50,937 bases of DNA from a virus. Lineage: Duplodnaviria; Heunggongvirae; Uroviricota; Caudoviricetes. This document shows positions 1,969-46,406 of the stretch, one piece after another; the stretch's first letter is position 1, and each line of letters opens with the position of its first letter. The notes under the pieces are model-generated. The model did not search any database and was not told the DNA's origin. It saw only the letters and a program-made list of their open reading frames with translations. Position numbers and translations under genes: made by a program. The stretch lies in the IMG/VR virus record IMGVR_UViG_2541047814_000001; one strand, given 5' to 3'.

Positions 1969-2177
1969 CAACCGCAGCACGTTCTTGCTTAAGACGTGCT
2001 GCGGCATAATCCCAATGATTACTCCCTGACAGGGTTCGTAGGCCACTCAATATCAGGTGCAGTTGATGTATCAACACGGTTCAGCAACACCCGATACTTT
2101 TTCCAGGCTTCCAGCAATGAGGTTTCTTCCTCCGTTGCAATTTCCAGATCTGCAGCATCCTGAAGCGGCGCAATATG
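1969..2177. repeat. Direct repeat copy 2 (tfa 3' end and hairpin gcagcacgt-N11-acgtgctgc at 1974-2002)
   Basis: Matches 919-1127; the hairpin lies between the convergent methyltransferase and tfa genes. Confidence 0.8.
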
Positions 2178-2603
2178 CTCACTGGCTACCTGCATCAGGT
2201 TGTTTTTTGTTTCTTCCGCCTCCCGGATCCGGAACAGTTTTTCTGCTTCCGTATCCTTCACCCAGGCTGTGCCGTTCCACTTCTGAAACTCCCCTTCCGG
2301 CGATAACCAGGTAACATTTTCCGGTAACGGACCGAGTTCAGAAATAAATAACTCGTCCCCTGACGCTACGTCATAAACCGTTTTACCCCGATGGTCTTCA
2401 ACGAGATGCCACGATGCCTCATCACTGTTGAAAACAGCCACAAAGCCAGCAGGAATATCTGGTGGTGCAATATCGGTACTGTTTGCTGGCAGACCTGTAT
2501 GAGGCGGAATATATGCGTCACCTTCACCAATAAATTCATTAGTTCCGGCCAGCAGATTATAAATTTTTATGGTCCGTGCTTGTTCACTCATTCTGAATGC
2601 CAT
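2019..2603 (-). CDS. tfa: Tail fibre assembly protein Tfa (194 aa)
   Basis: Immediately downstream of stf with ATGA overlap; conserved Tfa C-terminal region; lambda gene order. Confidence 0.85.
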
Positions 2604-10222: not shown

Positions 10223-10262
10223 CCCGCAGTTCCTGTCCGCGATCACTGCGGGATTTTTTTAT
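10223..10262 (+). terminator. Rho-independent terminator (CCCGCAGT-loop-ACTGCGGG + T8) on plus strand
   Basis: 8-bp stem followed by ATTTTTTTATTCTTTTT; the T tract follows the hairpin only on the plus strand. Confidence 0.6.
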
Positions 10263-26048: not shown

Positions 26049-26473
26049 CGGGAATCCTGGAGACTAAACTTCCTGAGAAAGAGGTAAACAGGATGACTAA
26101 AAATACTCGTTTTTCCCCCGAAGTCCGTCAACGGGCAGTCCGTATGGTTCTGGAAAGTCAGAGCGAATATGACTCACAATGGGCGACAATTTGTTCCATT
26201 GCTCCAAAGATTGGCTGTACGCCGGAGACTCTGCGTGTCTGGGTTCGCCAGCATGAGCGGGATACCGGGGGCGGTGATGGAGGGCTCACCACCGCTGAAC
26301 GTCAGCGTCTGAAAGAGCTGGAACGTGAAAATCGTGAACTGCGCCGCAGTAACGATATCCTTCGCCAGGCTTCCGCTTATTTTGCGAAGGCGGAGTTCGA
26401 CCGCCTCTGGAAAAAATGATGCCACTGCTGGATAAGCTGCGTGAGCAGTACGGGGTCGGACCGCTATGCAGCG
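26049..26473 (+). mobile_element. Truncated IS3-family element (IS629-like): left IR, orfA and the first ~20 codons of orfB
   Basis: Left end TGAACCGCCCCGGGAATCCTGGAGACTAAACTTCC; orfA complete; orfB frame ([19 protein letters not shown]) breaks after about 20 codons. Confidence 0.7.
26093..26419 (+). CDS. IS3-family transposase OrfA (108 aa, IS629-like)
   Basis: [23 protein letters not shown]... with HTH and leucine zipper typical of IS3 OrfA. Confidence 0.8.
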
Positions 26474-30570: not shown

Positions 30571-31104
30571 TTATCTGTCGATTCCCCAGCACGCCAGCGC
30601 GCTCTCCTGGTCACGACGGGATACCTGACCGTAGCAGTTGTTTGAACGAATACGGCAGTCTCTGCCACCGTCCTTAATCCACCAGCGAATCGCCTCACAC
30701 GCTCCCCTGCGATCACCTGCATTAATTCGTTTATAAAACGTCGACGGGAAACACTTACCGGGACCAATGTTGTACGGACAGAATGACGCGATCCCCGCTT
30801 TCTGGGGTTCACTCAATGGCACTCTGATGTTTTTCTCCACCCATGCCAGCGCCTTATCACGCTCAATGGCGTTAACCCGGTCGCATTTTTCCTTCGACAA
30901 CTTCATGCCCGGAACGACAGGTTTGCCATCCACCAGGATGGCACCGCGGCAGATGGTCCAGATACCCGCACCATCACGGTATGCCGTGGTGTGGTTACCT
31001 TCCTTTTCATCCAGAAACTGGTCGAGAATGTCAGGCGCAGGCGCACCAGCGGCAATCAGCGCCAGAACGGCAGCCGACAGGCCGTATCTGATTTTTGCGT
31101 TCAT
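30571..31104 (-). CDS. R: Endolysin R, T4-type lysozyme (GH24) with SAR-like N-terminus (177 aa)
   Basis: E-D-T catalytic region DEKEGNHTTAYRDGAGIWTICRG; hydrophobic Ala/Gly-rich N-terminal segment. Confidence 0.85.
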   Translation of the reverse strand: MNAKIRYGLSAAVLALIAAGAPAPDILDQFLDEKEGNHTTAYRDGAGIWTICRGAILVDGKPVVPGMKLSKEKCDRVNAIERDKALAWVEKNIRVPLSEPQKAGIASFCPYNIGPGKCFPSTFYKRINAGDRRGACEAIRWWIKDGGRDCRIRSNNCYGQVSRRDQESALACWGIDR

Positions 31105-31209
31105 GGATATTTATCAGGATTTATCGGTTTCTGAGCCCTGGATATGTTTATCAGTTCCAGCCTGTTGCCTCAGGCTGCTAACAGGTCAATACAATCATGA
31201 GGATTATTT

Positions 31210-31482
31210 ATGGACAATAACACCATTTCTCTACAGGAGTTGCTCGACAGCATTTCCAGGCTTCGGGAAGACGTGAATACCCTTACCGTCGCCTTCTCAT
31301 ATCTGGCATTCTCAATTCCAAGGGAACAGATGCAATCAACGCTGGCATCAATCCAGTTTGAATCATGCAATCCCAAATGGTCTCAGGAACAACAAGACTC
31401 TTTCAGGCGGCTTGCTGTATTACTGGATGAAAAATATGCTGGTAAAATTACCATTTCGGCGGACTCTTCAGAGAACCCGTAA
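31210..31482 (+). CDS. Hypothetical protein (90 aa) antisense within the lysis cassette
   Basis: GAGGA RBS 6 nt upstream of ATG; upstream TTGCCT...TACAAT promoter-like elements; non-repetitive composition; overlaps the 3' end of the YdfR-like gene. Confidence 0.35.
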   Translation: MDNNTISLQELLDSISRLREDVNTLTVAFSYLAFSIPREQMQSTLASIQFESCNPKWSQEQQDSFRRLAVLLDEKYAGKITISADSSENP

Positions 31483-31792
31483 TTATTCCCGGTAGTTTTC
31501 CTCTGTAGGTTATCAACACATCCTGCGCCTCTAAAATTACGGGGCGCTTTTCCGGCGACTGCTCATCCCCTTCACATAACCCGGCAGCAACATCCAGGAA
31601 GACCTGTCTGATGCTCCTTCTGGCTGCTGCCTCATAAAACTCCAGCGCGGCACCTTCAACACGGTCCAGCGAGATGTCCAGGTCAAAAATTTCACCGTCA
31701 AAGCGTTTTTTGTCCCGTAACGCTAAAGTTACCGTAACTTTATTCTCAAAATTGCGGATCCCTTTCACAATCAGTTCATAGTTTTGAGTCAT
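31448..31792 (-). CDS. YdfR-like (DUF1327-like) protein between holin and endolysin (114 aa)
   Basis: Position matches ydfR between essQ and rrrQ in Qin; family assignment from memory. Confidence 0.5.
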   Translation of the reverse strand: MTQNYELIVKGIRNFENKVTVTLALRDKKRFDGEIFDLDISLDRVEGAALEFYEAAARRSIRQVFLDVAAGLCEGDEQSPEKRPVILEAQDVLITYRGKLPGIITGSLKSPPKW

Positions 31793-31796
31793 TGAA

Positions 31797-32012
31797 TTAC
31801 TCTCCCCGTGCAGCCTTACGACGGTCCTCTCTGATTTTGAAATACAGGTTAGTCAGATATGTCAGCAGCCCAAACAGCAGACTCCCCAGCACGCCTATTG
31901 CCGCCCACTGAGACGGGGAAACCCTGTCCAGCAACTGCAGGAACCAGTAGCCCGTTCCCACCGCTGACGTGGTGTATGACACACCTGTTGTGATTTTTTC
32001 CATCTGGTACAT
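31797..32012 (-). CDS. S: Class II holin / pinholin, S21-like (71 aa, possible dual start MYQM)
   Basis: [67 protein letters not shown] closely resembles phage 21 S. Confidence 0.8.
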
Positions 32013-32044
32013 ACCCCGTCTCCCGTTATCCGGAAGCTGACAAC

Positions 32045-32078
32045 AATAAAAAAAGCCACCAGTTAAGTACTGATGGCT
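32045..32078 (-). terminator. Hairpin plus T7 terminator between nanS-p and the holin (minus strand)
   Basis: Minus strand GCCATCAGTACTTAACTGGTGGC followed by TTTTTTT. Confidence 0.5.
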
Positions 32079-32162
32079 CTGATAACTCATGCAGGCATCT
32101 CAGACGACCCACTGACACTACCGGTGAGTTTAACGATACCTTCCATTTGGCTGGCTCACTTT

Positions 32163-34016
32163 TTATGATGATGCCGGTGCATTTATCTCCAGCACCAGAC
32201 TTTCTATCTCAACGCCATACGCTGCATTTTTGGTAATATCCGTCAGCGTCAGCGCATTCAGCCCCAGTGTCAGACTGTCTTTTATGACCTGGAATGCCGG
32301 GCCAGCCACTCCATTCAGTTTCGGAGTAACCGTGGCACTGCCGGCGGTGAACACCAGCTCCAGCGTCTGCCAGTCGTTACTGTAATTCCCGAACTCGCCC
32401 AACTTTGTGTTTCCTGCTTTCTTGTGATGCATCAGATTCAGTTTGCCGTCTGTGGTCTGGGTGAAGAACGACATCAGGAACGGGTTACCAGTCCCGGTCA
32501 TCGCCACGACGTCAGGTAACGCTACATCGGTATACAGATAAATTCCCAGACCGAACTGGTTGTTGGTCAGTGCGCCTGACAGTCGAAACTTACAGCTCAG
32601 TCTGCCACCCCGTGTCAGCAGGGAGACTGCGTCATCCACCGGGCGCGTCAGGGACCAGGCTTTATTGCTCTGCTTGGTGATCTTAAATACACCATCTGAC
32701 AACTGAATTCCGCCATTCTTAATGCTCCAGCCCTGCGCAGCAGCGTCTCCGGCTGTCGGCAACAGGGAGATTGTGCGTATGGATGCATCTTCAGACGGCC
32801 CCGATGGCGTGTCGCCGCCGGGCGAGGCTTTGATTTCCGGTGCCTTACCACTAATGAAGGCTAAGGTGCGACCGGCTACGTTCAGAATAGCCGTTGCCAT
32901 ACGATCGGGAATAATGCCACGACGCGCCCATGAGCTGAAATGCGTCGGGCGATTTGATGATACCCAGTTTTTGTTCGTTCGGGATGCCGAACCGTAATAA
33001 CCAGACCCGGCAATATCAGGATCTTCTGACGGGTTGTTTGTCGGTGTATTAACTCCGCTACCATCGGTCATAAAGGGAACAAAATAAATCTGCTGGGATT
33101 CTTTACCTTTATATGCACCATATACCACTTCATATTGCGTACCGTGTTCTTGTTTCCACGCGTATGTCGTGTCGCCACAAATCCAGGGGACTGATGCCGG
33201 ACTTCCACCGTGACACTGCGCCGCCAGCCCGGCAAGGTCAGCACGGAACTGCTGTACCATTGCAAGAAATGCTGCTGGCTGCTGGGCGTAACTGGCATTC
33301 GTCATATCGAATTCCCCCTGCATCCAGCATATCGCCAGCAAAACGTTTTTCGGGTTTTTCTGCAATGCTGCCTTCGTGCGGAAAAGCAGATCCTGATATA
33401 ACGGCTTACCCACTCCCCAGCGAGCCGAATCCTGACTGGCTCCCGTGGACTCGCTGAATGTCCCCTCCGTGCCCTGGGTGAATGCCGAACCACCACGACA
33501 GCATGGTACCAGCAGGATCCCCGCATTATTAGGGATATACGGAAGCAGTTTTTTGGCAATATGTAAGCCCTGTCCGACACAGCCGTACTGCCCTTTGCTC
33601 AGGTCAGCCCGGGGATGGTTAATCGTACTCATATCCTGAACATCATGCAGACAATGGTCAGCAGGAATGATGTCGTTAAATACGCATACTTCACCACCGG
33701 GAGTCACTGTGTTACGACGGGCCAGTTGCTTAATGCGCGGATGGGGCGCATCGTATGAATCCGGAAGCGGAAGCCCTTCACCGTAAGCCATGGCATTGGA
33801 TTGCCCGGCCAGTACGATGACGTAGTACCACTCCGGCTCAGTTGCACCACTGACGACCACATCACCTTCTGCTGCAATCGCCTGCATCAGGGTATAAGGG
33901 GTTATGGCCACCGGACTACCAAACGGCTGCCAGCCCTCCTTCAGTTTTTGTGTCAGTCGTTTCGCAAGGTCTGACGGCGATGCCGCCCTGACCACGTCAT
34001 AGTGTTTAAATGCCAT
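32163..34016 (-). CDS. nanS-p: Prophage sialate O-acetylesterase NanS-p-like (DUF1737 N-terminus + SGNH/SASA esterase, 617 aa)
   Basis: SGNH motif LAGQSNAMAYGEG; N-terminal MAFKHYDVVRAASPSDLAKRL domain; position downstream of Q/tRNAs as in Stx phages. Confidence 0.75.
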   Translation of the reverse strand: MAFKHYDVVRAASPSDLAKRLTQKLKEGWQPFGSPVAITPYTLMQAIAAEGDVVVSGATEPEWYYVIVLAGQSNAMAYGEGLPLPDSYDAPHPRIKQLARRNTVTPGGEVCVFNDIIPADHCLHDVQDMSTINHPRADLSKGQYGCVGQGLHIAKKLLPYIPNNAGILLVPCCRGGSAFTQGTEGTFSESTGASQDSARWGVGKPLYQDLLFRTKAALQKNPKNVLLAICWMQGEFDMTNASYAQQPAAFLAMVQQFRADLAGLAAQCHGGSPASVPWICGDTTYAWKQEHGTQYEVVYGAYKGKESQQIYFVPFMTDGSGVNTPTNNPSEDPDIAGSGYYGSASRTNKNWVSSNRPTHFSSWARRGIIPDRMATAILNVAGRTLAFISGKAPEIKASPGGDTPSGPSEDASIRTISLLPTAGDAAAQGWSIKNGGIQLSDGVFKITKQSNKAWSLTRPVDDAVSLLTRGGRLSCKFRLSGALTNNQFGLGIYLYTDVALPDVVAMTGTGNPFLMSFFTQTTDGKLNLMHHKKAGNTKLGEFGNYSNDWQTLELVFTAGSATVTPKLNGVAGPAFQVIKDSLTLGLNALTLTDITKNAAYGVEIESLVLEINAPASS

Positions 34017-34209
34017 GAATCCTCCCGGGCGGGATAATGTTGTGAGTCAGATAAGGAGCAGGCTGAAGTCCGGAAGTTACAGGACAATGGCAGAAGGGAG
34101 ACTACAGCCCGCAATTCGAAAAAGACCGCGCAGTTGCGCAGAGTGATTACTATGGGGTATTATTCGCCAGCTGAAATATTACTTCACGTTTTATTGTTTA
34201 TTCCTTGCC

Positions 34210-34238
34210 GCCCGCGTCTCCCAGCGCGGGCTTTTTTT
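34210..34238 (+). terminator. Plus-strand rho-independent terminator (GCCCGCG-loop-CGCGGGC + T7)
   Basis: 7-bp GC stem and T7 read directly; a candidate promoter (TTGCGC - 18 nt - TATTAT, 34134-34163) lies about 50 nt upstream on the same strand. Confidence 0.55.
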
Positions 34239-34241
34239 GTC

Positions 34242-34430
34242 CATAAGAAAGCCCCTCCGGAGAGGGGCTAAAGCCGCGTATCTGTATCATCATGCACATG
34301 GTGCCGGGTGCCTCCCGGTGAGTTCAGCCCGGTGCCACTAAACCCGCGTCATTCTCGTTTTGATAATCAGAGATTATACCGTCACCAGTCGCCCCTCCGC
34401 TCAGGGGGATTCACCATGCGAAATTTTTTT
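34242..34430. repeat. Direct repeat unit 1 (about 180 bp, imperfect) with GCCCCTCCGGAGAGGGGC hairpin
   Basis: Shares blocks with 34735-34915 (aaagcccctccggagaggggct, ggtgccgggtgcctcccggtga, cccctccgc.cagggggattcaccatgc, tgaattgtgag). Confidence 0.6.
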
Positions 34431-34734
34431 AACAAATGCCCAGTCTGACAGGCAACTGTCAACTTACTGAATTGTGAGCAACATAGCATTTAACGGGGAA
34501 CCTGTTTTCTGCAGTAAAAAGGCCCACCGGAGCGGATGGGCCTGGAAGGATAGCGGTCATGTGATGCCGGTTTCCCGGTAACTCAGCACCGGTATCTGAG
34601 TCAACGTTTTCTCTACTGGGTCATTTCCGATACGCCCTGCCTGCTGACAGGCTTTCATCACATCTGAAAATATAGCACCCTGACTGATACTGTAGTACCT
34701 AAGGTTCCAGAAACTGTGATGTATCCGGCACAGA

Positions 34735-34915
34735 AAAGCCCCTCCGGAGAGGGGCTGGAGAGTGGCGCTATGTGCCATTGCATGGTGCCGGGTGCCTCCC
34801 GGTGAATTCAGTACCAGCACCTGAATCCGCGATTATCCCATATACCTACTCGCTGATTGCCCCTCCGCACAGGGGGATTCACCATGCCAGTTTCTTTTAA
34901 CAAACTCCCCGCAAA
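34735..34915. repeat. Direct repeat unit 2 (partner of 34242-34430)
   Basis: Same conserved blocks in the same order and orientation. Confidence 0.6.
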
Positions 34916-34989
34916 CCAGACAACAGTCAACCGCCTGAATTGTGAGACATTTAAAAAAAGCCCGCAAAAGCGAGCCAGGGAAAATAAGT

Positions 34990-35067
34990 GTGGCGCGTTG
35001 TACTGGATTCGAACCAGTGACCGATTGCTTAGAAGGCAATTGCTCTGTCCGGCTGAGCTAACAACGC
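34990..35067 (-). tRNA. tRNA-Arg (anticodon UCU)
   Basis: Minus strand folds as cloverleaf; anticodon loop CTTCTAA; T-loop TTCGAAT; 3' CCA encoded. Confidence 0.8.
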
Positions 35068-35080
35068 AGGATACAGATAA

Positions 35081-35157
35081 TGGACCGCCTTCGGGGACCC
35101 GAACTCCGCGCAACCAGCTTCGAAAGCTGGCGCTCTTTCCTGATGAGCTAATGGCGG
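35081..35157 (-). tRNA. tRNA-like gene, probably Arg (anticodon read as UCG); atypical T-arm
   Basis: D-arm GCTC...GAGC, anticodon stem CCAGC/GCTGG with loop TTTCGAA, CCA end; T-stem has one mismatch and T-loop is TTCGGGT. Confidence 0.45.
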
Positions 35158-35164
35158 TATGTGA

Positions 35165-35240
35165 TGGTGGCCCTTGCTGGATTTGAACCAGCGACCTGGC
35201 GATTATGAGTCGCTCGCTCTCACCACTGAGCTAAAGGGCC
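35165..35240 (-). tRNA. tRNA-Ile2-like (anticodon CAU; ileX/ileZ type)
   Basis: GGCCCTTTAGCTCAGTGGTGAGAGCGAGCGACTCATAATCGC...GGGCCACCA; near-canonical cloverleaf, 76 nt. Confidence 0.85.
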
Positions 35241-35289
35241 GGGAGCAGAATAATAATGGTGCGTAATTAATTCTGCAATCTCATCCGTT

Positions 35290-36339
35290 TCAAACGATTA
35301 AATCCTGAACTTCCCTGACTGTCTGCTCAAAACGTCCGGTCTCCAGTTCAACGCCAATCGCACGACGCCCAAGCGCCAGTGCCGCTTTTACCGTTGAACC
35401 TGAGCCCATAAAAAAATCTGCAACCAGGTCACCCGGACGACTGCTTGCGCTGATTATCTGCTGCAGCATTTCTGCCGGTTTTTCGCACGGATGTTTCCCG
35501 GGATAGAACTGCACCGGTTTATGTGTCCACACATCCGTGTACGGCACCTGCGCCGTCACACCAAAATACCGCCGCAGATGCTTATATTCACTCTGCAGCT
35601 CCACATACTGCCGGTTCAGTGACGTATACGTATCCACCAGCTGGTGGTGGGGCTTTTCCAGTTCACCGCGCTGATGTTTCTCTTCTGCCACCCGGGCAAA
35701 CAGCGACTGTAATTTCAGATAATCGCTTTCGTTCGGTAGCTGCCACTGACTGGCACTGAACCAGTGCGACACCATGTTTTTCTTTCCTGTGGCATCTGCA
35801 ATCTGTTTTGCCGTTATCCCCAGGGCAGCGCGCGCATCACGAAAGTAAGAAATCAGCGGGGCCATCACATGCTGTTTCAGTGCACTGCCCTTCGCCGCAT
35901 ACCCGGCATCTTTCGGACGATACGGCCCCTGATAATGTTCCGCGAACAGAATGCGCTCTGTGGCGGGGAAATACGCCCGCAGGCTTTCCTTGTTGCATCC
36001 GTTCCAGCGTCCGGACGGCTTCGCCCAGATAATATGGTTCAGCACACTGAAGCGTTCACGCATCATGATTTCGATATCAGATGCCAGGCGATGACCACAG
36101 AACAGGTAAAGACTTCCGACAGGTTTCAGCACCCGCCAGAACTGCGCCAGACACTGGTCCAGCCACTTCAGGTAATCATCGTCGCCCTTCCACTGGTTAT
36201 CCCAGCCCTCAGGCTTCACTTTAAAGTACGGCGGGTCCGTGACTATCAGGTCAACAGAATTTTCGGGTAACGACCGGATAAATTCCAGGCAGTCGGCGTT
36301 GATTAACTCACAACTGGATATTTTTACAGTATTAAGCAT
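35290..36339 (-). CDS. DNA methyltransferase (N6-adenine/N4-cytosine type, DPPY motif, 349 aa)
   Basis: Catalytic motif IVTDPPYF; C-terminal SAM-binding FFMGSGST; position between Q and the tRNAs. Confidence 0.8.
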   Translation of the reverse strand: MLNTVKISSCELINADCLEFIRSLPENSVDLIVTDPPYFKVKPEGWDNQWKGDDDYLKWLDQCLAQFWRVLKPVGSLYLFCGHRLASDIEIMMRERFSVLNHIIWAKPSGRWNGCNKESLRAYFPATERILFAEHYQGPYRPKDAGYAAKGSALKQHVMAPLISYFRDARAALGITAKQIADATGKKNMVSHWFSASQWQLPNESDYLKLQSLFARVAEEKHQRGELEKPHHQLVDTYTSLNRQYVELQSEYKHLRRYFGVTAQVPYTDVWTHKPVQFYPGKHPCEKPAEMLQQIISASSRPGDLVADFFMGSGSTVKAALALGRRAIGVELETGRFEQTVREVQDLIV

Positions 36340-36489
36340 GGATCATTAAGCCTGTCTCTGATAGGCTCATTCTGCTTTTGCGCAAAGCAGTGGGCCTGAG
36401 GTTTGCTTGTGAACCCAACGCATGAGCAGATGGCTGGTGGGTGCCCCTAACACCCACCAGCCGCCCATTTACCACAAATAAAAAAGCCT

Positions 36490-36687
36490 TCAGGACTGAA
36501 GGCGTCTGTAACAACCGAACTGATAGTCTGCCAGACCCGCCATAACCAGCTGGGTCAGTATTAACTGGCAGCGTTCGCGTGAAAGGTAAGTATTCTGCGC
36601 TATCTCCCCGACTGTCGCCGGTTCGGTAACGCTTAATTCATTAAACACCACTCTGGCGGTTTCTGTCATATCCTGCTGTTTTAGCAT
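36490..36687 (-). CDS. Small hypothetical protein, possible winged-helix DNA-binding (65 aa from MLKQQD...)
   Basis: AAGGA-like RBS upstream of internal ATG; helix-turn-helix-like TVGEIAQNTYLSRERCQLILTQLVMAGL. Confidence 0.4.
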   Translation of the reverse strand: MLKQQDMTETARVVFNELSVTEPATVGEIAQNTYLSRERCQLILTQLVMAGLADYQFGCYRRLQS

Positions 36688-36807
36688 GTCTTTTTCCTTT
36701 TTCCGGTTAACGTGACATACCAATAACTCTTGTCGAAAAAGCCAGCAAGCTGAAAGACCCGTATTCGCAACCACCAGCGTGTTTACTGTACTGACGCGAT
36801 TTTGGGC

Positions 36808-36834
36808 ATAAAAAAAAACCGCCTGACGGCAGTT
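36808..36834 (-). terminator. tR'-like terminator just downstream of the Q-like gene (also a hairpin + T8 on the plus strand)
   Basis: Minus strand AAAAAAAA-CTGCCGTCAGGCGG-TTTTTTTTT; imperfect stem, long T tract. Confidence 0.5.
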
Positions 36835-36874
36835 TTTTTTCTTACTTTGCCATCGCGTACAAAATCGGCAAAAT

Positions 36875-36915
36875 ATCAGATTTATACGAAACGTACGCTA
36901 TTTAATTGACTTTTG
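36875..36915 (-). promoter_or_regulatory. Candidate late promoter PR' with -10 TATAAA immediately after the Q stop
   Basis: TATAAA (plus 36881-36886) about 16 nt 3' of the Q stop; -35 is weak; a start here would give a short 6S-like leader ending at the tR'-like terminator. Confidence 0.3.
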
Positions 36916-37591
36916 CAATATCTCGTCGTGAAAAAGTCGCTTTTTGTTGCGCTCTTATTTTCACGGTGCAAATCACAGATTCTCTATCGAGACTCTTAAA
37001 AATATCGCACATCTCACGCCAGTAGTTCGCATAATTATGGCTCCAGTTATCAGGCTTAACTCCACACAGTCTGGCAAGCTCCTGTCTCTGGTAGACCTCA
37101 CACCCGGTAATCCATCCTCTGACATCCTGTGCCGCCAGCCAGATCAACTTCTTCACGCGCTCCTGCGTTTTCCCTGCAATTTTTCTGGTGCCGTACCGGG
37201 TTTTAAATTCATTCCACACCCACTGCGTTATCGCGATCTGATATTCCCAACAAATACTCCCGCTGTAACACCACAACAACCAGGCTTTATGATGTTCTTC
37301 AAGAGACAGAACAGCCCGCCGCCACGATGATGTCGAAAACTCAACCGGACTGACGAGAGGAATTGACACCCCCTTCGCCAGCGATTGCTTTCCCGGGATT
37401 GGTGGATTATCCCGCGTTATCATTTTTCCAGTCACTTCATCGCGGTACCGGATTTTTTTACGCCTGTAACGCCCTGTATCAAACATGGCATTCTCCTGCC
37501 AGGCCTCAAGCTGCCCTTTTGTTGATCCACTCAAATCGGCGGTGGCAATCATGAGTTGCTCACGAACAAACTGTAAATACTGGTTATTCAT
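36902..37591 (-). CDS. Antitermination protein Q-like (229 aa)
   Basis: Position between rusA and the PR'/tR'-like signals and late genes; size similar to Qin-type Q. No diagnostic motif confirmed by eye. Confidence 0.5.
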   Translation of the reverse strand: MNNQYLQFVREQLMIATADLSGSTKGQLEAWQENAMFDTGRYRRKKIRYRDEVTGKMITRDNPPIPGKQSLAKGVSIPLVSPVEFSTSSWRRAVLSLEEHHKAWLLWCYSGSICWEYQIAITQWVWNEFKTRYGTRKIAGKTQERVKKLIWLAAQDVRGWITGCEVYQRQELARLCGVKPDNWSHNYANYWREMCDIFKSLDRESVICTVKIRAQQKATFSRRDIAKVN

Positions 37592-37953
37592 GCGTACTCC
37601 AGTTCTGTGATTTTTATCCCCAACCGCCCACCAGGAACAAGCTGACCGCGCACAATATTAATTTCATCAAACTGCTCGTCGTCTATGAGCAGCCCCGCAT
37701 GCGTCAGTACATCCAGTGGTGCCTTCAGGATATTGTCCAGGTCACGACGGCGCTTATCCGGTGGCTCTGCAATAATTTCTATTGCCGGCCTTCCGGACAG
37801 GTTTAATTTCAGTTGCTGCTGGCGAACAATAAGCGCCACATCACGGCGATAACGCTCACCGACTTTTGATACAAAATATGTGCTGCCACGACGTCGCCAG
37901 TAAGTGTTCACCGTTGGCGGGTAAGGCAAAACAAATTCTATGCGTTCAGTCAT
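37588..37953 (-). CDS. rusA: Holliday junction resolvase RusA (121 aa)
   Basis: PPTVNTYWRRRG and RRRDLDNILKAPLDVLTHAGLLIDDEQ match RusA catalytic-core motifs. Confidence 0.85.
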   Translation of the reverse strand: MTERIEFVLPYPPTVNTYWRRRGSTYFVSKVGERYRRDVALIVRQQQLKLNLSGRPAIEIIAEPPDKRRRDLDNILKAPLDVLTHAGLLIDDEQFDEINIVRGQLVPGGRLGIKITELEYA

Positions 37954-39009
37954 TTATGCTTTCCACTTCAGAACACCCGAATTTCTCGCGTGCATTAAAA
38001 AACGAATCAGCAACAACAGCTGGCTGCCGTGTTTTTCTTCAAAATCTTTTACCCCGGCGTGTAGTTCGCTATGGCATTTACGGCACAGCGGAATAACAAA
38101 CAAATCATCAGCCTTTGTTCCCATCCCTCCCAGTCCATGACCAATGATGTGATGCGGATCATCTGCCTGATTGCCACACGTCATGCATTTCTGCGTTTTT
38201 ACCCAACGCGTGTATACAGGCATCTCTTCCCGTTGTGATTTCTGGCGCTGGAGATACTGAGCCGGTGACTCCGGATCAACGGCAATGCTGACCACCGTCT
38301 TTTCCTGTGGCGGGTTTTGCTGGTGGGCGTGAGGCAGCGGCGCAAGATTTTTTGTGCGCTGCTTCAGTATGCTGGTGGCGGTCTGCTCTCCCGGTACGAT
38401 GTCGCTTTCACGGTACATTGAGCGGATTTTTTCCGCACGCAACCCCAGCGAACGACGTAATACCGCTTCCGGTAGCGCGTCCGCCACCTGATTGCGGACC
38501 GCCCACCAGGATAATTCAGCCAGCGATAATTCCCGCTCCTGCGAGCCATTCATTGCATGGCGTATGACGTCAATCATCCATGCAGACAGGTTTTGGTGAG
38601 CAAGTTGCCCGAGTGATTCGGAGGTCTGGTCGCGCAGCTGGTTGTCGCAGTGCCAGCACAACACCATTGCGCCGGTACCATAACGGTGAATGACGGTTTC
38701 ACTGTGGTGATAATCGCCGTGTGGCCACTGGCAGGATTTAACATGGCGCAGTAACCAGTCAGACAATGCGCCAGCGCCACCAGCAGCACGAATCACTCGT
38801 TCGTCGCTGAAAAATGGCAGTAATGATTTATCCTCCGCCAGCGGCTGGCGAACGGCAGGAACGACCCCGGACGGCAGATTACGCATGCTTTTCGGTTCCG
38901 GCTCCACCAGTACCCGGGTATTGTGGAATACCGGCATGGATTCACGGCCCGGCTTAACGATCACCAGCCCGAGTTCCGGTACCAGAACAGGTCGAAGTAA
39001 TACCCGCAC
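37954..39009 (-). CDS. DUF968-like protein with C-terminal HNH-like Cys/His cluster (351 aa)
   Basis: CMTCGNQADDPHHIIGHGLGGMGTKADDLFVIPLCRKCHSELH; position upstream of rusA/Q as ydfU in Qin (from memory). Confidence 0.55.
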   Translation of the reverse strand: MRVLLRPVLVPELGLVIVKPGRESMPVFHNTRVLVEPEPKSMRNLPSGVVPAVRQPLAEDKSLLPFFSDERVIRAAGGAGALSDWLLRHVKSCQWPHGDYHHSETVIHRYGTGAMVLCWHCDNQLRDQTSESLGQLAHQNLSAWMIDVIRHAMNGSQERELSLAELSWWAVRNQVADALPEAVLRRSLGLRAEKIRSMYRESDIVPGEQTATSILKQRTKNLAPLPHAHQQNPPQEKTVVSIAVDPESPAQYLQRQKSQREEMPVYTRWVKTQKCMTCGNQADDPHHIIGHGLGGMGTKADDLFVIPLCRKCHSELHAGVKDFEEKHGSQLLLLIRFLMHARNSGVLKWKA

Positions 39010-39450: not shown

Positions 39451-39606
39451 TTACTCCTCAGGTTCGTAAGCTGTGAAGACAGCGACCTCCGTCTGGCCGG
39501 TTCGGAGTCGTACCTCGCAGAGGTCTTTCCTCGTTACCAGTGCCGTCACTATGACGGTTAAACAGATGACGATCAGGGCGATTAACATCGCCTTTTGCTG
39601 CTTCAT
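39451..39606 (-). CDS. hok: Hok/Gef-family type I toxin (51 aa)
   Basis: MKQQKAMLIALIVICLTVIVTALVTRKDLCEVRLRTGQTEVAVFTAYEPEE is a near-canonical Hok sequence; the in-frame upstream extension is probably leader, not coding. Confidence 0.85.
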   Translation of the reverse strand: MKQQKAMLIALIVICLTVIVTALVTRKDLCEVRLRTGQTEVAVFTAYEPEE

Positions 39607-39843
39607 AGCCTGCTTCCCCTTGCCTTTCGGCACGTAAGAGGCTAACCTACATTTGTGAGACATAGATTGGGCCTCAGATTAATGTTAAGCGTCTTGCAGG
39701 ACGCGAAATGTTAACTGGGGCTTTTCTCTATCTGCCTTTCAGTGTTCATGCCTGAGACAGATAGCCTCAAGCACCCGCAGCCATTCTACTTAACTCACGT
39801 CACCTCGCCAATATGAAATCAATCAGAAAGGTGATCCATAAAA

Positions 39844-46348: not shown

Positions 46349-46406
46349 TTTCTGGTGACGTTTGGCGGTATCAGTTTTACTCCGTGACTGCTCTGCCGCC
46401 CTTTTT
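46349..46406 (+). ncRNA. dicF: DicF sRNA (53 nt plus T-tract terminator)
   Basis: TTTCTGGTGACGTTTGGCGGTATCAGTTTTACTCCGTGACTGCTCTGCCGCCC followed by TTTTT matches the DicF sequence as I recall it; lies upstream of dicB as in Qin. Confidence 0.65.

Follow-up and report, generated by a model that had tools for sequence, protein, structure and literature searches.

The window analysed here is a stretch of 50,937 nt from a virus genome (Caudoviricetes; IMG/VR record IMGVR_UViG_2541047814_000001); it represents a lambdoid prophage that has its late genes on the minus strand and carries no stx. We describe a small RNA (sRNA) gene on the plus strand of this prophage. Its parts are a −35 hexamer TTGCGC (34134-34139), an 18-nt spacer, a −10 hexamer TATTAT (34158-34163), a predicted short primary transcript of ~70 nt (34169-34238) and an intrinsic terminator (34210-34238). 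On the minus strand the gene is preceded by an sRNA of the STnc100 family (34239-34448; a full match to Rfam RF02076 with 165 bits), and the terminators of the two convergent units end at the same place, abutting one another. On the other side lies a nanS-p-type esterase gene (32163-34016, minus strand; Pfam domains DUF1737, SASA and DUF6645), which is context only and stands outside the module. An earlier note, made from the letters of the window alone, had proposed a candidate sRNA at this site; the two hexamers are present exactly as it placed them, and so is the orientation that it described, against late transcription.

The terminator is formed by GCCCGCGT and GCGCGGGC (34210-34231), which make eight pairs (seven of them G-C) around a 6-nt loop, followed by seven T (34232-34238). 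In a scan of 31000-38000 it was the best-scoring of the terminator-like sites; the scanned region contains 19 such sites vs 6.7 ± 2.4 expected from shuffles. Across 19 sequence variants 95% of the cells are paired; one double change replaces G-C by A-U, and several changes are to wobble pairs. No conserved open reading frame (ORF) was found on the plus strand, where the earlier note had likewise seen no gene. A 45-aa ORF with a TTG start (34134-34271, plus strand) was considered as a coding sequence and ruled out, its frame being broken in homologues by 4-nt insertions and by deletions of 5 to 13 nt.

The 70-nt RNA is predicted to fold into an unstructured A/U-rich 5′ part and the terminator hairpin (−17.9 kcal/mol, z = −2.9). 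Within it two short elements can be distinguished. Comparison of lineages revealed a conserved block CUUCACGU (34182-34189), in which TCAC is invariant and the adjacent bases are nearly so; the 5′ end of the RNA before this block varies in both sequence and length. The second element is a putative seed CCUUGCC (CCTTGCC in DNA; 34203-34209), recognized as the complement of a published target motif discussed below and predicted to be unpaired, just before the terminator hairpin, in the minimum free energy and the centroid structures alike. Most variants conserve the seed, with rare CCUUGCU or UCUUACC. The architecture is that of Hfq-binding sRNAs: a tail of U7 (where at least six U are expected) after an 8-bp stem, and a single-stranded conserved seed. 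The putative promoter is conserved and homologous to promoters mapped by rapid amplification of cDNA ends (RACE); the start of the 70-nt form is placed by analogy, and longer isoforms exist.

A BLAST search with 34120-34245 revealed sequences with 93-94% identity at the same position in prophages Sp4 and Sp15 (a Stx1 phage) of enterohaemorrhagic Escherichia coli (EHEC) O157:H7 Sakai and in prophage PP6 of enteropathogenic E. coli (EPEC) E2348/69; the identity to these detected copies spans 126-170 nt and takes in the −35, the −10, the body and the terminator. Tree 2014 (PMC4104026) described pairs of convergent sRNAs in lambdoid prophages, within the moron site 3′ of PR′. Table S2 of that paper, which is based on crosslinking to the RNA chaperone Hfq and analysis of cDNA (CRAC), contains EcOnc08 (Sp4, minus strand, 1179938-1180010, present in five of five sets), EcOnc21 (Sp4, 1180016-1180101) and EcOnc42 (Sp15, 2924036-2924118), and the three were assigned a single Northern band of ~271 nt. 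These coordinates belong to an earlier version of the genome; we recalibrated them to NC_002695.2 with the published probe sequences and obtained an offset of 0 at Sp3/Sp4 and of 142 at Sp5/Sp15; used uncorrected on NC_002695.2, the table misplaces peaks beyond ~1.2 Mb. After calibration the EcOnc08 peak is the 73-nt sequence TCGCCAGCUG...GGGCUUUUU; as TCGCCAGCTGAAATATTACTTCACG...GCGCGGGCTTTTT it corresponds to window positions 34164-34236, starting with the base that directly follows the −10 and ending inside the U tail. The other two, EcOnc21 and EcOnc42, occupy the 83-86 nt just upstream of EcOnc08 and end at the −10; in the window their peak sequences correspond to 34073-34158 (plus strand), a stretch that would belong to a longer isoform.

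The Sakai RNAs share with the window element the place between an STnc100-type sRNA and a nanS-p homologue and the strand with respect to late transcription. They differ from the window copy by a few substitutions (two fall in the spacer, one, A/G at 34193, in the body, and another in the terminator loop) and in size, ~271 nt as published vs ~70 nt as predicted for the window. Homologous loci L003 and L004 have the same arrangement: the strand is the one opposite to late transcription, and the 3′ ends of the RNA and of an STnc100-type sRNA face each other.

The EPEC copy coincides with a candidate reported from E2348/69 under the designation E2348C_1409.E2348C_1408.IGR (NC_011601, 1444797-1444978, minus strand, 182 nt by coverage), which its authors noted to be a homologue of EcOnc08/21/42 (Pearl Mizrahi 2021, PMC8550237). 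The 3′ end of this RNA (1444797) maps to window position 34238, the last base of the T run, and its 5′ end to ~34057. The gene, its 3′ end and the seed CCUUGCC are the same as in the window; the differences are that the 182-nt size comes from read coverage, with no Northern validation, that the EPEC candidate is unnamed and that the host of the window prophage may lack the targets located in the LEE (the enterocyte effacement locus) or on the plasmid.

We consider it likely, therefore, that the element constitutes a self-contained gene whose product is an Hfq-dependent, trans-acting sRNA of lambdoid prophages, the same RNA as EcOnc08/EcOnc21/EcOnc42 and E2348C_1409.E2348C_1408.IGR. The candidate gene of the earlier note is thus a real sRNA gene ending at the terminator at 34210-34238, with Hfq-bound homologues 93-94% identical to it, but it is not new to the literature, which already has the RNA as a candidate without a name; it is ordinary in kind and not a new kind of element. 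A 2020 paper refers to EcOnc42 as an sRNA that ‘bookends’ stx1AB, and a 2021 review (PMC7873438) lists EcOnc08/21/42 with targets unknown. In our literature search no later paper naming the EcOnc08-type RNA was found, and Rfam, searched at the gathering thresholds and at E ≤ 10, has no family for it.

The RNA is common. It is carried by 1193 of the 5426 complete E. coli genomes, with up to six copies in each. Many Stx1- and Stx2-converting phages have it, and a stretch identical to that of the window occurs in many E. coli genomes that are not Shiga toxin-producing, where RefSeq annotates nothing between the esterase (an identical copy of the nanS-p-type gene is named there ‘SASA family carbohydrate esterase’) and the tRNAs.

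Taken alone, the match to a promoter is weak evidence; comparison with other loci, made at the level of sequence, lifts the putative promoter above chance. At the loci of AsxR (Sp5), AgvB1 (Sp10) and EcOnc03 (Sp9), as in the window, there is a common block AAAAAG(G/A)CCGCGCAGTTGCGCAG, and in these three loci TTGCGC is followed by a spacer of exactly 18 nt and a −10, which is TAAAAT there and TATTAT in the window. The 5′ ends of AsxR and AgvB were mapped by 5′ RACE (Tree 2014, PMC4104026). According to the Rfam model and the published sequences, these RNAs start at the sixth nucleotide after the −10; with the same geometry the +1 of the window RNA would be A34169 and the transcript would be 70 nt long.

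Conservation was followed in viral contigs. Matches to a 14-mer made of the seed and the stem were usable there only after BLAST filtering, and a scan of genome contigs for the exact 14-mer listed matches that look like chance, in unrelated taxa. As one of the viral-contig search patterns included the seed and so biased the sample, the survey was repeated with an anchor outside the RNA, and it was there that the rare seed variants turned up. In this survey, which covers 118 IMG/VR loci anchored solely on the shared upstream block, the −10 position is occupied by TATTAT in 74, by TAAAAT in 43 and by AAAAAT in one; the TATTAT loci carry the EcOnc08-type body and the TAAAAT loci carry bodies of anti-sRNAs. 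The anchored loci also include 14 with a further 5′ variant of an anti-sRNA (CGATTATAAAAATGTATATCTCATGC...), whose variable region is unlike those of AgvB, AsxR and EcOnc03. At one IMG/VR locus (variant a22) the sRNA gene is broken by foreign DNA right after CUUCACGUUUUG; the insert may resemble a terminal repeat of IS1.

Across all lineages the TTGC of the −35 is invariant, with GC or AA as the last two bases; in all lineages of the EcOnc08 type the −10 is TATTAT or TACTAT, and the spacer is free of indels. Three diverged lineages, EC19, N47 and 19AR1724, have retained the −35, the 18-nt spacing, the −10, the CUUCACGU block, UUCCUUGCC, the seed and the terminator, with only about one-third of the spacer sequence conserved among them. 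Upstream of the −35 the flanks of EC19 and N47 are unrelated and 19AR1724 retains a short part; nanS-p is absent from all three. In EC19 the module follows a methylase moron, and in prophages lacking nanS-p the module was also found immediately ahead of the holin gene. In N47 (NZ_CM165890.1, locus L009, 3001-3075) the diverged module lies directly 3′ of an operon for a scabin-related ADP-ribosyltransferase and a subtilase-family AB5 B subunit, a placement that mirrors the positions of EcOnc42 and AsxR 3′ of stx1 and stx2. Since the hexamers and their 18-nt spacing are kept without nanS-p and without the upstream flank, the inherited unit is the segment of ~105 bp that the earlier note had delimited, which argues against a long transcript started at nanS-p being the only one that matters. 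On these grounds of sequence comparison the TTGCGC/TATTAT promoter is probably genuine.

Several observations weigh against the reading of the element as a self-contained trans-acting sRNA gene. All of the evidence for expression and Hfq binding comes from homologues in other strains. The promoter matches the consensus at only eight of 12 positions (three of six in the −35) and has a suboptimal 18-nt spacer; with a cut-off of nine of 12 consensus positions, our promoter scan did not list it for this reason. Sites of equal quality number 108 in the window, and for any given point there is a chance of ~8% that one lies 30-110 nt upstream. The covariation statistics for the terminator are weak because the copies are too similar, and the conservation of the seed is in part a matter of ascertainment, given the search pattern mentioned above. 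Finally, the +1 of the short form (A34169) is inferred, not mapped; the coverage in EPEC suggests 182 nt; and the ~271-nt Northern band, obtained with a probe sited on the promoter, indicates that the RNA is started upstream at least in part.

The last points deserve closer attention, as they bear on the claim of the earlier note that the transcript is of ~70 nt. The EcOnc08 CRAC peak matches that transcript almost base for base; still, the short RNA is not the sole product, since isoforms of ~182 and ~271 nt read through the promoter. The Northern probe AATAATATCCGACAGTAATCACTCTGCGCAATAGC is complementary to the stretch from −35 to −10 (target GCTATTGCGCAGAGTGATTACTGTCGGATATTATT), so it detects only transcripts started further upstream and would miss a 70-nt RNA. 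A candidate start for a longer isoform is a promoter-like site ATGCCA-17-GATAAT (34010-34038, plus strand; nine of 12 in the scan) with a predicted start at ~34045; the resulting RNA of ~194 nt would be close to the EPEC estimate. Conservation of this site is uninformative because it overlaps the start codon and the ribosome binding site (RBS) of nanS-p.

It is thus conceivable, though in our judgement unlikely, that TTGCGC/TATTAT is unused and that the sole primary transcript is an RNA of 180-270 nt from within or near the nanS-p 5′ region, of which the ~70-nt part is the crosslinked portion or an RNase E product. Along with the Northern result, the EPEC coverage and the nine-of-12 site, the 86 nt upstream of the −10 covered by the EcOnc21/EcOnc42 CRAC peaks fit this explanation, and so does the fact that StxS and PasA, other prophage sRNAs, are shortened from longer transcripts. 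On the other hand, the hexamers and their 18-nt spacing persist in EC19 and N47, where homology ends at about the −35, and in 19AR1724 with its short upstream part, all of them devoid of nanS-p; the promoter geometry is the same as for AsxR and AgvB, whose primary starts were mapped by RACE; and the 5′ edge of the EcOnc08 peak falls 1 nt after the −10.

As for the function of the RNA, the best available guide to the targets is the set of partners published for EPEC, because the seed there is identical. Ligation and sequencing of interacting RNAs (RIL-seq) in EPEC yielded chimeras of the homologue with the 5′ untranslated regions (5′UTRs) of cfa (767 chimeras, odds ratio 54) and dppA (197), with pcm (118), perA (30), tir (29) and espC (26), and with E2348C_3965 (16) and emrA (15); the homologue was always RNA2 in the chimeras, their ends clustered at the terminator, and it was classed as an sRNA because >67% of the partners were coding sequences (CDS) or 5′UTRs (PMC8550237). 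The motif derived from these partners is GGCAAGG/GGCAGGG (PMC8550237), and the seed at 34203-34209 is the exact complement of GGCAAGG. Duplexes predicted with the published target snippets lie on 34185-34213 and in every case involve the seed; four of the 10 (cfa, emrA, the yagU intergenic region and E2348C_3965) were better than at least 99% of those with shuffled targets. In E2348/69 the sites are located 135 nt (cfa) and 59 nt (dppA) upstream of the start codons. As these two strongest sites are far upstream of the RBSs, the effect would arguably be exerted through mRNA stability or structure and not by occlusion of the RBS.

The mode of action that we propose may be outlined as follows. 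In the lysogen a σ70-type promoter (TTGCGC, 18 nt, TATTAT) would start the RNA near 34169, and the intrinsic terminator would end it at 34238, giving ~70 nt; the 3′ end has been shown in homologues. The U-tailed terminator hairpin would bind Hfq, binding that has likewise been observed for homologues, as have longer isoforms, which start upstream, within the nanS-p 5′ region or close to it, and have the same 3′ end. With Hfq, the seed would pair with GGCAAGG-like sites in the cfa, dppA, pcm, tir, espC and perA mRNAs, the partners known from EPEC RIL-seq; for cfa and dppA the outcome may be a change in mRNA stability or in the structure of the leader.

Other explanations of the element concern its role in cis, its kinship with known sponges and its very existence as a functional RNA. 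The earlier note had the RNA overlapping the nanS-p 5′ region in antisense, and one may suppose that its main job is in cis, as an antisense to the late transcript or to the nanS-p 5′ region that lowers leaky expression of nanS-p or of the lysis genes in lysogens. By position the RNA is fully complementary to the late-strand transcript, and a longer isoform would extend over the nanS-p leader and, at ~271 nt, over the RBS and the start codon as well. However, the short RNA is confined to the stretch from 153 to 222 nt upstream of the nanS-p ATG; the module, from the −35 to the T run, is kept in prophages without nanS-p, where it lies immediately ahead of the holin gene or follows a methylase or toxin moron, so that control of nanS-p by antisense is not its core role; and the RIL-seq partners are many unlinked mRNAs with a common motif, that is, the pairing is in trans. 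An antisense role towards nanS-p is thus unsupported, and we regard a main job in cis as improbable.

A role as an anti-sRNA (sponge) acting on a core sRNA, like AgvB and AsxR, appears slightly less probable still. The slot, the promoter block and the convergent arrangement with an STnc100-type sRNA are those of AsxR, AgvB and EcOnc03, and dppA, the read-out of AgvB action, is among the RIL-seq partners; yet the window RNA lacks the 3′ region of 42 nt that is conserved in the anti-sRNAs, the Rfam models of AsxR and AgvB find no match in 33900-35300 even at E ≤ 10 (the AsxR model scores 88 bits in Sakai Sp5), and the EPEC authors' classification and the partners listed, which are mRNAs, indicate an sRNA. 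The least probable explanation, to which we give very little credence, is a chance promoter match beside a terminator that insulates the region of toxin, STnc100 and moron genes from antisense transcription, with no functional RNA. The quality of the promoter (eight of 12, with the chance expectation given above) and the density of terminators in the intergenic region would agree with it; against it stand Hfq crosslinking in all five sets, a Northern signal, and RIL-seq chimeras that number in the hundreds and share a target motif, the complement of a conserved single-stranded stretch. This explanation is already contradicted by the published data on homologues.

The relation of the EcOnc08-type RNA, as a trans-acting sRNA, to the AsxR class can be specified further. 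AsxR (RF02703), AgvB (RF02702) and EcOnc03 share with it the chromosomal slot, the upstream block AAAAAGGCCGCGCAGTTGCGCAG with the −35 and the 18-nt spacer, an A/T-rich −10, the convergent STnc100-type partner (in Sakai Sp5, at the same position, AsxR is convergent with STnc100/EcOnc27), Hfq binding and a short RNA with an intrinsic terminator. They differ in the core GUAUCUCAUGC..GCCCGAACCCAYUCGGGC, which is theirs and is absent from the window RNA, the bodies not being alignable; in size and seed (51-60 nt with a variable 5′ seed of 14-18 nt, vs a predicted 70 nt with the seed beside the terminator); and in the partners, which are sRNAs in their case and mRNAs for the EPEC homologue. Membership in the AsxR/AgvB families was rejected, as neither the models nor the conserved 3′ region of ~42 nt was found.

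The slot itself closes the moron region: Q, the tRNAs and the moron or toxin genes lie upstream of it, and nanS-p or the holin gene lies downstream. A hairpin CTGCGC-AACT-GCGCGG followed by TCTTTTT, detected in the terminator scan (34117-34141, minus strand), reads as a terminator of the late strand, and the −35 of the sRNA promoter sits inside it; the block AAAAAG(G/A)CCGCGC..TTGCGCAG is common to all cassette types (AsxR, AgvB, EcOnc03 and the EcOnc08 type). In lysogens this hairpin could block read-through from STnc100 into nanS-p. We tentatively propose, as an idea somewhat short of an even chance of being correct, that the site before nanS-p or the holin gene is a promoter-sharing cassette slot, in which a fixed block (TTGCGC, 18 nt, TAWWAT, in a late-strand terminator-like hairpin) drives interchangeable sRNA bodies, with the ~70-nt transcript as the conserved functional unit and with dppA touched by both types. 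The body of the cassette may be either an anti-sRNA (AgvB, AsxR, EcOnc03 and at least one further 5′ variant) or an mRNA-targeting sRNA with a CCUUGCC seed. A primary transcript of ~70 nt would be one that has not been delineated in print, where the sizes given are 182 and ~271 nt. For dppA the two types would use different means: AgvB acts by sponging GcvB, and the EcOnc08-type RNA would act by pairing at −59 of the dppA leader. The C/A-rich stretch ~25 nt downstream of the −59 site is one that we take to be the GcvB site.

The remaining features of the neighbourhood, in the order of the late strand (all on the minus strand), are a DNA methylase gene (35290-36339), three tRNA genes (34991-35240), a full STnc100-family unit (34726-34916; RF02076, 136 bits) and a weak STnc100-like unit (34514-34687; RF02076, 30 bits, below the threshold), followed by the convergent partner of the sRNA gene; beyond the nanS-p-type gene there is a holin gene. 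The STnc100 family (STnc100/PasD/EcOnc05/EcOnc27), to which PasD, a relative of STnc100 and EcOnc13, belongs, is prophage-borne and Hfq-bound like the EcOnc08-type RNA and forms a convergent pair with it in the same intergenic region, but it is encoded on the other strand, measures ~170-250 nt and is unrelated in sequence, a neighbour of the EcOnc08-type RNA and distinct from it. Within the copy at 34726-34916, positions 34824-34858 match the Sakai EcOnc05 Northern probe exactly. Identity of the window RNA with PasA-D was rejected, the probe targets of PasA, PasC and PasD being absent from the window; a segment at 10231-10255 (plus strand) resembles the target of the published PasB Northern probe (four edits in 23 nt) and may be a PasB-like sRNA. 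A match to OmrA-B (RF00079) was rejected too, with 25.2 bits vs a threshold of 40 (E = 0.036) and a score driven by the terminator. Further Rfam matches in the window are DicF (46350-46401, plus strand), sok, the antitoxin RNA of hok/sok (39601-39776, minus strand), IS009 (2062-2260, minus strand) and the ALIL frameshift pseudoknot of an IS3-family element (26374-26473, plus strand).

For the sRNA gene as a whole, the boundaries drawn earlier from the sequence alone were essentially right. To the published catalogue our analysis adds precise gene boundaries, a likely promoter of its own that is common with the AsxR/AgvB class, and the position of the seed, which make the RNA directly testable; it also adds the equivalence of the window RNA to EcOnc08/21/42 and to the EPEC candidate, and the cassette relation to the AsxR/AgvB class. 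The EcOnc08-type RNA is widespread, yet it is unnamed and absent from Rfam. In EPEC its contacts are with mRNAs that serve the modification of membrane lipids (cfa) and the uptake of peptides (dppA) or encode virulence factors (tir, espC and perA). If the proposal of alternative bodies in one slot is true, it would hint that phages tune the peptide uptake of the host by alternative routes.

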